A stretch of 64,000 nt of DNA from Escherichia coli (GTDB taxonomy: Bacteria; Pseudomonadota; Gammaproteobacteria; Enterobacterales; Enterobacteriaceae), in NCBI RefSeq assembly GCF_045037415.1, contig NZ_CP173440.1. One strand, given 5' to 3'. This document shows, one piece after another, positions 30,001-33,000 of the stretch; position 1 is the first letter of the stretch, and each line of letters opens with the position of its first letter. A program made the position numbers.

Positions 30001-33000
30001 CCGCCAGGGCAGATTTGCTTAACCCAGCCTTTTATCGCATGTCGTACAGTATTTCGACCAGTGACAGTTCTTTAACTGCTCTTTGGTAAGCCCGGATTGC
30101 CTCCGGGGAGTTGAGCAGACTTTCTTTGACCCGGTTAAATGGGATGCCTTTTACTTTCATTAGCTCATCTCCTTCAGGTGCTTTCTCGCTATCTCTGCGA
30201 TCCGCCTGATGACTGGGAAAACCTGATCACTGAACCTGGAGCATCTACTTTGTTGATACATTATACTGTGGGTTTTTCCGTCCGGAACTGACAAAATGCT
30301 ACACTTCGGATTAAAATACATTAGGGAAGATAGTATTTAGAAAGTGATGGGGAAATTATTATGTTTAAAGAGATTAAAAAATGGTTTGTTAAGGGCGTCA
30401 ATTATGAGACTGAGTTCATCGCAGCCGTAAAGCGATCCAAGAAGTGGAAACTTGAAGTTCCTAATATCTCTTTAAAAAAGACTCCATTTCTTGCTGGGGA
30501 AAGGGCTGCTATAGCTTTAAAAGTTATTCAGGACTATGCTTCAATGCATAGCCCGGAGGAAGTATCTCAACAATGTTTTGGGTATATGTATGGAATTCAG
30601 AGTGCTTTGGAAAACGCTTTACAAACTCCACTATATTATACATTAGGTTATATTGAATTTGAAAAGAGAACCAGTGTTTCATACAGAAATTCCAAAATTA
30701 GAAAGGAATTTGTATAATCCAGTTTCAGGCGTTGGGGCGATTGATTTACATGCCTGGCTGACGACTCCTAATCTTGAAATCATTGATCTTACTTTCGCAA
30801 CAACATATGGTATTGTGAATGATATTCCATCAGTAATTGGACGTTCTTCCTTTCAACATTACTCTGAGTTTAATGATAACATGGTCTATCATCCTCAATT
30901 AATCGGCGACGATTATTTGAAGAAGATTGGAGCCATCGTTGATTATAGTTCGTTGAATATTATTATTACGTAGTGCAGATAGCTATCGGTTATTATATAA
31001 CTAGGGGCATTCCTTGTTTTATCAGGCGCTTTGTAAATGTTTTCCTTCAGGGGGTGATATAAGGCGGGTTTTACGGTTAACAAAGCACCTTATTTTCTGA
31101 ATAACGGATTAATAACGCTCAAAATCATATTCTCGGTCAAAATCATAGTTTTTGCCTAGATTTTCATGAAGAGCCTCAACCCTTCCTTCATTTTGATGAG
31201 ACGGTCTCTGTATAGAAACATGAATTCCAGATACACCGGACGAAGCCTCAAAACCTTTAGCCTGTTTTGCGGCAGCACAAGATTGTTTTCGGTTTTTAAG
31301 AACTTTCTGTAAGCCTAGTAAAACGATGGAGAAGGCAAACAGCCCATAAAAACAATAAGTTACATAATCCCAATGCAGAAAATTAGCCATTGTGTATCTC
31401 ATATTTATAGTTGTTGAACACATTAGAGCCTATCGTCCTTGTATAGCCCTTAGCCTCTCTCATTTGATTACATTATAAACTATTTAACCCAGCCTCCAAC
31501 CCCCTGTTTTCATCACCCCCGGATGCAGCCTCAACTCTAAAAGGGGGCTTTACAGGCCATAGTCCATGGTGTATCCGTTGATACACAGTTGTTATCGCTG
31601 ACTGGCTATGAAAAACAGTCGTTGTTTATGCGCTGCACAGGCCCGGAAAGTTACTTTTTTCTCAGCCATCGAAACAGCACCCCGGCAGTTCTACCTGGTA
31701 AATTAAGGGGAATGACGTTTTCTTTTCCCGGCCGGGTAAGCAGACCGTCTTCGTAGTGTGTCAACGGGAGTCACGACGTCAGGAACAGACAGACCAGTGA
31801 GGTTTACGTGAATGAATCATCAATAAAAACCGAAAATGTGTTCCTCTTCTGGAGAGCCATTGAAGCCTTAACCCCTCAGGATATTGATAAGGAAAATGCC
31901 CGCGACAAACTCAACCCGGTTTACAAAGTAGGGGCAGGATCCATGCTTCCCTGGGATGACCCGGAACATACCCGTAAGGATATTGCGCCTGGCAAAGTGT
32001 GGCGCTACTCCGCTCAGGCGGGGGTTTATCATCTGAGCGTGATTACCAAAATGCTGGAGGATAAAATCGGTGCCCATGAAGCGGTACCTGAAGAACGTAA
32101 ATCAGGGAAATGCAGGCTTTTTGATATTGGTTTCAGTGAAGAAGGCATCCCCCAGCCAGCCACGTTCATGTTATCCCTGTCTGCATGGTCGGCGGCTCAG
32201 ATACTCAGGCATGATCGCGGCGTTTACGCTCTTCATGCTCCCCTTTGCTCCGATGTGTCCGACCTGCCCGCACCAAACGACAGCCTCCCGCTGGTGGATA
32301 GCGGTTTTTACGATTTTGATAATCTGACTCTTCATCTCATGCAGTGGGTGGACAATGAGGCTTATCGATTACAGGAGGAGGGACAGAAGGCCGATACAGA
32401 ATGGTTGAAGACGCTTGAGAAGCTGGTCATCGCAAAACTGTATTTTCCGGTAGAAGCCATGGATACGACGATCGTCAGTGTGGTTAAGTGTTCCCTGACC
32501 AGGAAGGCGAAAGTCATCCAGGAAGACAGTGCAAAGAAAGACAATAAAAAGAAAGAAGCGGTGCCCGATGACCTCATTAACAGTTTTTTCATTCAGGAAC
32601 TGCGAAATCTAGACGCGGAGTGGAGGCAAGGAGGGGGTGGGGCCGGTTTTAAAGACTTTATCATGGCGATAACCCGGGATAACCAACAGCGCCTCGATAT
32701 ACGTACTGAAGAAGGCCTGGATTTTGCATTTGAGAAACTGTTGCCCACACAGCCACCAGCTGGCTCCTGGCCTTCAAAGTACCCGCTGGCATTCAGCCAG
32801 CAGCTGGCCGTCAATGAAATCTGGACCAGAAATTACACTGAACCGGGTATTTTTGCTGTAAATGGTCCTCCGGGAACGGGGAAGACAACACTCCTGCGTG
32901 ATGTGGTGGCCGCAGTCGTCACCGATCGGGCGAGAAAACTGGTTAAACTCGGAGACTCTGCATTTAAAGCCAAAGACAGCCTCAAATACGATGACAGGCT

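Follow-up and report, generated by a model that had tools for sequence, protein, structure and literature searches.

The window analysed here, a stretch of 64,000 nucleotides of Escherichia coli contig NZ_CP173440.1, carries just downstream of traG a short segment in which a remnant of a toxin–antitoxin (TA) locus on the minus strand is followed by a frameshifted gene for a 203-aa protein on the plus strand (Table 1). The ~1.6 kb around this segment is matched over its full length at 99.9% in 59 large Klebsiella plasmids and 3 E. coli plasmids, and the annotated relatives, pKpvST147B_virulence and phvKpST395_NDM1_1657 among them, are IncFIB/IncHI1B, MOBH, MPF_F conjugative hybrid plasmids. The segment is very probably a patch of accessory DNA at a variable spot downstream of traG, made up of a dead TA scrap and an unrelated, broken single-gene cargo.

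The minus-strand open reading frame (ORF) runs from 30160 to 30035, ends at a TAA stop (30034–30032) and encodes 42 aa. The original prediction had described a 44-aa ORF with an antidote-like N-terminus and a premature end; the length needed correction, and the rest was borne out by an eroded antitoxin with a stop at codon 43. Its product, MKVKGIPFNRVKESLLNSPEAIRAYQRAVKELSLVEILYDMR up to the stop, matches the N-terminus of a 95-aa antitoxin of the Xre helix-turn-helix (HTH) type (WP_023339393.1) encoded by a 54.9-kb plasmid (L002), where the intact pair lies on one strand as a gene for a 102-aa RelE/ParE-family toxin followed by that of the HTH protein, with a one-base overlap of stop and start codons. 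Pfam analysis of the intact pair assigned the toxin to Gp49/PF05973 (7e-28) and residues 38–87 of the antitoxin to HTH_3 (2.4e-11). At the DNA level the remnant matches the L002 locus over 200 bp (93.5%, E = 6e-77), a similarity that, as judged from the sequences, is far beyond chance. The match spans the toxin/antitoxin junction, whose stop/start overlap TAATG is kept. Antitoxin homology continues past the stop for 11 further codons, down to 29998, and the first 54 antitoxin codons are retained. On the toxin side the window reads ...RRIAEIARKHLKEMS before the stop, where the intact toxin reads ...GAIEIARKRLKEMS; in a second rendering the last 12 codons are ...IAEIARKHLKEMS in the window and ...IEIARKRLKEMS in the L002 reference, each again followed by the stop. 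Both breakpoints are observed directly: at the left edge plasmid-backbone homology stops exactly at 29996, and at the right edge the in-frame sequence upstream of the 12-codon toxin tail bears no relation to the toxin.

The intact locus was found in 190 plasmids, mostly of ~54 kb and non-mobilizable, and in Klebsiella phages such as 020009, 48ST307 and phiKO2, where they go by the names Gp49 and Gp48; the phiKO2 Gp49–Gp48 pair is matched at 88% by the intact reference locus. The locus belongs to the Tad-Ata group of type II TA systems, whose toxin family includes N15 gp49 (PMC2701414), and the N15/phiKO2 gp49–gp48 systems combine a RelE/ParE-superfamily toxin (DUF891/PF05973), encoded first, with an Xre-HTH antitoxin. 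With these systems the window shares junction DNA of 93.5% identity; it differs in that the toxin is reduced to 12 codons and the antitoxin to 54 (42 of them before the stop), with no PF05973 domain, HTH or promoter. Descent from a Tad-Ata/Gp49–HTH type II system is therefore seen in the remnant, and neither the toxin gene nor the HTH antitoxin of such a system is present. No Gp49/PF05973 domain occurs in it, only the 12 terminal toxin codons having survived, and the 42-aa product gave no Pfam match. The Xre/Cro-type HTH is likewise absent: HTH_3 covers residues 38–87 of the 95 in the intact protein and the window ORF ends after residue 42, so the DNA-binding domain is lost.

Two other plasmids, pFF1076_1 and pKP187, have the identical two breakpoints without the nonsense codon and thus carry a less-decayed 61-aa ORF. 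Compared with the pFF1076_1 version, the window lineage has acquired 7 nonsynonymous changes (stop included) and 2 synonymous ones, and this ratio together with the nonsense codon is what a sequence released from selection would show. On sequence grounds, the stretch 29997–30198 is a dead scrap of the TA addiction module of phiKO2/N15-like linear phage-plasmids, a fossil rather than a member of the family. All but 12 codons of the toxin are lost, and the antitoxin is cut after codon 54 and also interrupted by the stop at codon 43. What is left lacks toxin, DNA-binding domain and operon promoter, and rides passively with the whole plasmid lineage. The 42-aa product and two 42-aa variants of its 90% cluster are found on >1000, 805 and 88 contigs, indicating that the fossil is fixed and hitch-hikes on a successful backbone. 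The same abundance could be read as a sign that the truncated antitoxin peptide (42 aa; 61 aa in relatives) has been kept to neutralise the Gp49 toxin of co-resident phiKO2-like phage-plasmids, a form of anti-addiction to which the retained start codon and AAGGAG ribosome-binding site would also point, as would the 61-aa versions of pFF1076_1 and pKP187, in which only 2 of 54 amino acids differ from the functional antitoxin. We regard this as very unlikely, because the operon promoter, which lay upstream of the toxin, is deleted, the excess of nonsynonymous changes in the window lineage is what is expected without selection, and hitch-hiking accounts for the broad spread. With the remnant taken as a fossil, the "hypothetical protein" annotated in >1000 Klebsiella contigs would be the stump of a phage-plasmid antitoxin.

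On the plus strand, two ORFs of 118 aa (30361–30717) and 106 aa (30653–30973) overlap by 65 nt, in agreement with the prediction of an AT-rich gene (GC 0.357, against 0.467 for the whole window) divided between two overlapping frames. In every close relative both ORFs form a single 612-nt gene encoding 203 aa (WP_084456092.1). The extra A responsible, in the context GAG-AA-CC, is the sole difference over 1.6 kb from p98206-contig_3, and over 41.6 kb shared with phvKpST395_NDM1_1657 it is one of three differences, the others being substitutions at 22019 and 34490. Further indels seen against pKpvST147B are private to the pKpvST147B record, many plasmids matching the window at 100% there. The gene is present in 71 PLSDB plasmids, all but one of which have a 700-bp in-frame version; the lone exception, CP154638.1, gives a 705-bp match and is annotated as two proteins. 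The insertion itself is shared by no PLSDB or E. coli RefSeq record, and the exact 118-aa frameshift product occurs on one contig in a collection of 15 billion proteins (WP_404999121.1, E. coli, 353,276 bp). The lesion is thus private to one assembly, and the proposal that the split reflects long-term erosion does not hold, as it comes down to a single private 1-bp insertion in a gene that is in frame in all the other records but one.

A lesion of this kind could equally be a recent real mutation or a residual assembly indel, and we rate the two about equally. That the split is an assembly or base-calling artefact, so that in the real plasmid the gene is whole and decay is confined to the TA remnant, comes close to an even chance. 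The frameshifted product is found on exactly one contig, against 119, 30, 19 and 6 contigs, more than 170 together, for the listed members of the intact 203-aa cluster, and names of sister plasmids such as "p98206-contig_3" suggest long-read assemblies, in which residual errors are mainly single-base indels. Against an artefact, however, stand the lack of any other indel in the 41.6 kb shared with the nearest relative, which differs otherwise by the 2 substitutions, and the nature of the site, A to AA, which is no long homopolymer. Independently broken alleles also indicate that loss of the gene does occur naturally: P0204 (142 aa, 5 contigs), P0021 (156 aa), P0206 (87 aa), and a Yersinia pestis homologue (L029 3001–3610, JBKMKV010000004.1) that follows a TraG_N gene, is split into 114 and 87 aa on 46 contigs, and carries a 2-bp deletion <=3 nt from the insertion site in the window. 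Programmed ribosomal frameshifting, by which both frames would be decoded into one protein, has the overlap itself in its favour and a negligible probability, since all relatives and all distant homologues use one frame, the insertion is private and of a single base, and no recognised slippery motif was seen by eye at GAA AAG AGA ACC. If the extra base is real, the window copy is a null allele. The extra A parts Cys72 from His130 and Asp142, three conserved residues considered below, and ORF1 ends 16 codons after the shift, so that no uninterrupted frame passes through all three and neither ORF could be active. The position thus flags a possible assembly error or null allele in a clinically relevant hybrid virulence/resistance plasmid lineage. 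Should the A prove to be an assembly error, the gene would show no decay at all, and this possibility weighs against describing the cargo as broken.

The original prediction saw in the two pieces an eroded TA system or cargo insertion, of which the antitoxin with its 12 toxin codons and the accessory nature of the DNA, missing from three backbone plasmids described below (L013, L014 and L023), were upheld, and the split gene proved to lie outside the TA system. Both pieces have clear homologues, so the prediction is not refuted on that count. They were linked before the divergence, of about 5%, that separates the window from pFF1076_1. They are adjacent and occur together as a block in about 71 plasmids, which would suit the idea that two halves of a single eroded TA system survive in the 203-aa gene and the antitoxin remnant. 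This is nevertheless highly improbable, as the remnant's true partner can be identified, a toxin of the Gp49 family encoded on its own strand, their stop and start codons overlapping, while the 203-aa gene lies on the opposite strand and is absent from the phages carrying the TA pair, and its homologues in Serratia, Citrobacter, Providencia, Yersinia, Pseudomonas and Vibrio have neither such an HTH antitoxin beside them nor a conserved partner.

The 203-aa protein had no match in Pfam, NCBIfam, PADLOC or PHROG. It has 51 homologues of 182–234 aa in Klebsiella, Serratia, Lonsdalea, Salmonella, Citrobacter, Providencia, Yersinia, Pseudomonas and Vibrio, and when 1.84 billion cluster representatives were searched with a profile, 724 clusters (formed at 50% identity) were retrieved at E<=1e-3, of which 393 reached <=1e-10; almost every member is a single-domain protein of 180–205 aa. 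No Pfam family covered the domain in 55 diverse relatives, profile-to-PDB sequence searches with the family found nothing, a viral structure library gave no significant match, and tblastn of the protein against phage genomes gave none. The lone domain fusion seen in the family, a pentapeptide-repeat protein joined to half of the domain, is probably a gene-call artefact. Alignment of the 55 diverse members revealed Cys72 in >=90% (that is, at least 90%) of them and invariant His130, Trp132, Thr134, Glu139, Asp142, Pro178 and Gly182. An AlphaFold2 model built on the alignment was confident (pLDDT 86, pTM 0.83) and placed Cys72 at the N-terminus of helix 72–87, His130 at the start of strand 130–134 and Asp142 at the end of strand 139–142. 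Foldseek returned weak matches to protein glutaminase, a putative cysteine protease (3isr) and TG2.

The model thus has the core fold of the transglutaminase/papain-like superfamily, a nucleophile helix packed on an antiparallel sheet, and in the predicted structure the cysteine at the helix N-terminus is followed by His and Asp on the next strands. No curated sequence model of a member family of the superfamily, such as Transglut_core, BTLCP or NAT, matched. The predicted fold and the order of Cys, His and Asp are shared with transglutaminase/papain-like enzymes as diverse as LapG/BTLCP proteases, TglA, PeiW, protein glutaminase, the SseI and PMT deamidases and arylamine N-acetyltransferases, and the sequence is 7–12% identical to Atu2299 (PDB 2HLY), a structural-genomics protein without known function. 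The protein is accordingly predicted, on the basis of the model, to be a transglutaminase/papain-like Cys-His-Asp enzyme. Because all the named fold matches are Cys-His-Asp enzymes of this fold, we infer that the protein is a thiol enzyme whose target is an amide or acyl bond. It would be cytoplasmic and would use its thiol either to hydrolyse such a substrate or for a transfer reaction on it, as a protease, deamidase or acyltransferase. Weighing against this assignment, the geometry of the triad is taken from residue order and predicted secondary structure. An unannotated enzyme family with no Pfam model, hundreds of clusters and a presence on mobile elements could merit a family definition.

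In every context examined the 203-aa gene is solitary. No conserved partner gene was found beside the family, and the upstream neighbours vary (DUF2726, MepB-like and no-Pfam proteins). In Providencia the gene lies in an integrative and conjugative element (ICE), after TraG_N, DUF3742 and DUF2726 genes and before an AcrVA2-like gene; in Citrobacter it directly follows a tyrosine integrase and lies beside a DUF927 gene; in Vibrio it lies beside HetE-N, PIN-TPR-GreABC and VspR genes; and in Pseudomonas it is near a resolvase and an AAA_13 ATPase. A further genome (L022) has it in a region with a phage tail gene (Phage_tail_X) and a DNA methyltransferase, and one member sits within a ketoacyl-synthase/BtrH_N/ABC-transporter operon of fatty-acid/polyketide-like type. 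Three element types, the window plasmid, the Providencia ICE and the Y. pestis element, carry the gene just downstream of traG. The common thread of these contexts is mobile or variable DNA. Since the family rides plasmids, ICEs, integrase-flanked islands and defence-island-like regions, the protein may benefit mobile elements, and could plausibly function in conflict or establishment. The fuller proposal, that this is an unrecognised widespread family (about 724 clusters) of single-gene mobile cargo that acts in conflicts between element, phage and host or in establishment after transfer, is tentative and on balance doubtful; if it were true, the protein might act, for example, by cleaving or deamidating a protein of the host or of a rival element. 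The heterogeneity of the contexts, the BtrH_N operon included, counts against a single role in mobile-element conflict.

The accessory nature of the segment, inserted in a conserved backbone of IncHI1B-type plasmids, follows from comparison with related backbones. The canonical backbone, of the pOXA-48 type (L014), has the order traG, small membrane gene, B element (a noncoding repeat) and helicase, and in a second variant, represented by pHB25-1-vir (L013) and pYS1718-1 (L023), a 118-aa gene separates the B element from the helicase. Up to 29996 (...TGTCAAC) the window matches this second variant; BLAST of 28600–32200 found 29997–31364 absent from all three of these plasmids; and after the block the second B copy and the helicase are contiguous and 97.8% identical to pOXA-48 (L014). 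The two B copies of the window are 82–94% identical to each other, and the element occurs in 566 conjugative Klebsiella-type plasmids, mostly just once, in the interval that separates the small membrane gene from the helicase. A left side of the 118-aa-gene variant, a right side of the L014 type and diverged B copies point to tandem alleles brought together by recombination between plasmid variants. A recent duplication as the origin of the B repeats is ruled out, the copies being diverged alleles of one backbone element. The 7-bp TGTCAAC present at both 29990–29996 and 31758–31764 was considered as a target-site duplication and rejected, as it marks where the two backbone variants regain homology. 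The locus is an ordinary mosaic of recombination debris and genome decay, and not a new system; it matters little for the window itself, and shows the spot to be a junkyard of recombination scraps.

Table 1. Position and strand of the features discussed, numbered from the first nucleotide of the window
Feature	Position	Strand	Remark
Whole finding (remnant and split gene)	about 29997-30973		
gp49/gp48 (Tad-Ata type) TA remnant, ~200 bp	29997-30198	minus	93.5% identity to L002 2501-2700
42-codon ORF, N-terminal piece of Xre-HTH antitoxin	30032-30160	minus	GAA to TAA nonsense change at codon 43
Gp49-family toxin tail, last 12 codons and stop	30160-30198	minus	Remaining toxin gene deleted
Promoter-like site CTGACA-18-TAAAAT	30288-30317	plus	Consensus scan only, 10/12 matches; 44 nt upstream of the 203-aa gene
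Frameshifted copy of the 203-aa cargo gene, 613 nt	30361-30973	plus	
Extra A (AA where relatives have one A)	30669/30670	plus	Frame shifts after codon 102
Accessory block (TA remnant, 203-aa gene, second small membrane gene)	29997-31435	no strand	BLAST against backbones; GC 0.386
traG	24731-28696		Transfer region; finding lies just downstream
First small membrane gene (MMYELFGF... type)	28731-29018	minus	Single-pass membrane protein
B repeat copy 1, noncoding, ~255 bp	29038-29291	plus	Backbone intergenic element
118-aa gene	29531-29887		Between B copy 1 and antitoxin remnant
Second small membrane gene (MANFLxWDY type)	31109-31390	minus	
B repeat copy 2, noncoding	31458-31709	plus	
Helicase of superfamily 1, 1113 aa	31808-35149		Backbone gene

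Among the neighbouring features, the B element had no Rfam match and no significant fold. The possibility that the repeats are structured single-stranded DNA promoters or RNA elements was discarded on DNA folding z-scores of -1.45 and +0.15, and a divergent promoter or a regulatory function can be presumed for the element. An Rfam search of 26000–34000 at E<=1 yielded sub-threshold noise only and no known RNA. A hairpin with an 8-bp stem (CCCCGTCC-TTTA-GGGCGGGG) at 29966–29985 closely precedes the left edge of the accessory block; it has no T-run and is therefore no canonical terminator, and a 90% similar copy was found beside the 3' end of a lytic transglycosylase gene in pOXA-48 (L014).

The two small membrane genes encode single-pass proteins of different types. 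Related plasmids have one or the other type directly after traG, and the window lineage has both. The arrangement resembles the eexC/traG entry-exclusion pair of IncC/IncA plasmids and SXT ICEs, in which a gene for a small single-pass membrane protein directly follows traG and, in pVCR94, eexC (vcrx145) works with traG. The small membrane genes of the window show no sequence similarity to known Eex proteins, the likeness being one of position only, and by this analogy the two might act in entry exclusion, each with its own specificity. Among three plasmid variants the N-terminal ~550 aa of TraG are about 88–100% identical and the C-terminal ~750 aa 24–78%; set against the type of small membrane gene, the three sequences show only that the C-terminal ~750 aa of TraG are hypervariable.

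The 118-aa gene occurs twice in the window, at 29531–29887 and 8895–9245, with 95% amino-acid identity between the products, the underlying DNA duplication spanning about 8726–9252 and 29361–29888. Its product had no match in Pfam, NCBIfam, PADLOC or PHROG. The core of the 1113-aa helicase matched the PADLOC MkoC (Mokosh) model (5e-70) and Pfam AAA_11/AAA_12, and no nuclease domain was detected in the protein. The substitution at 34490, one of the only two substitutions private to the window, lies in this helicase gene and places Pro in the window where the relative has Thr.

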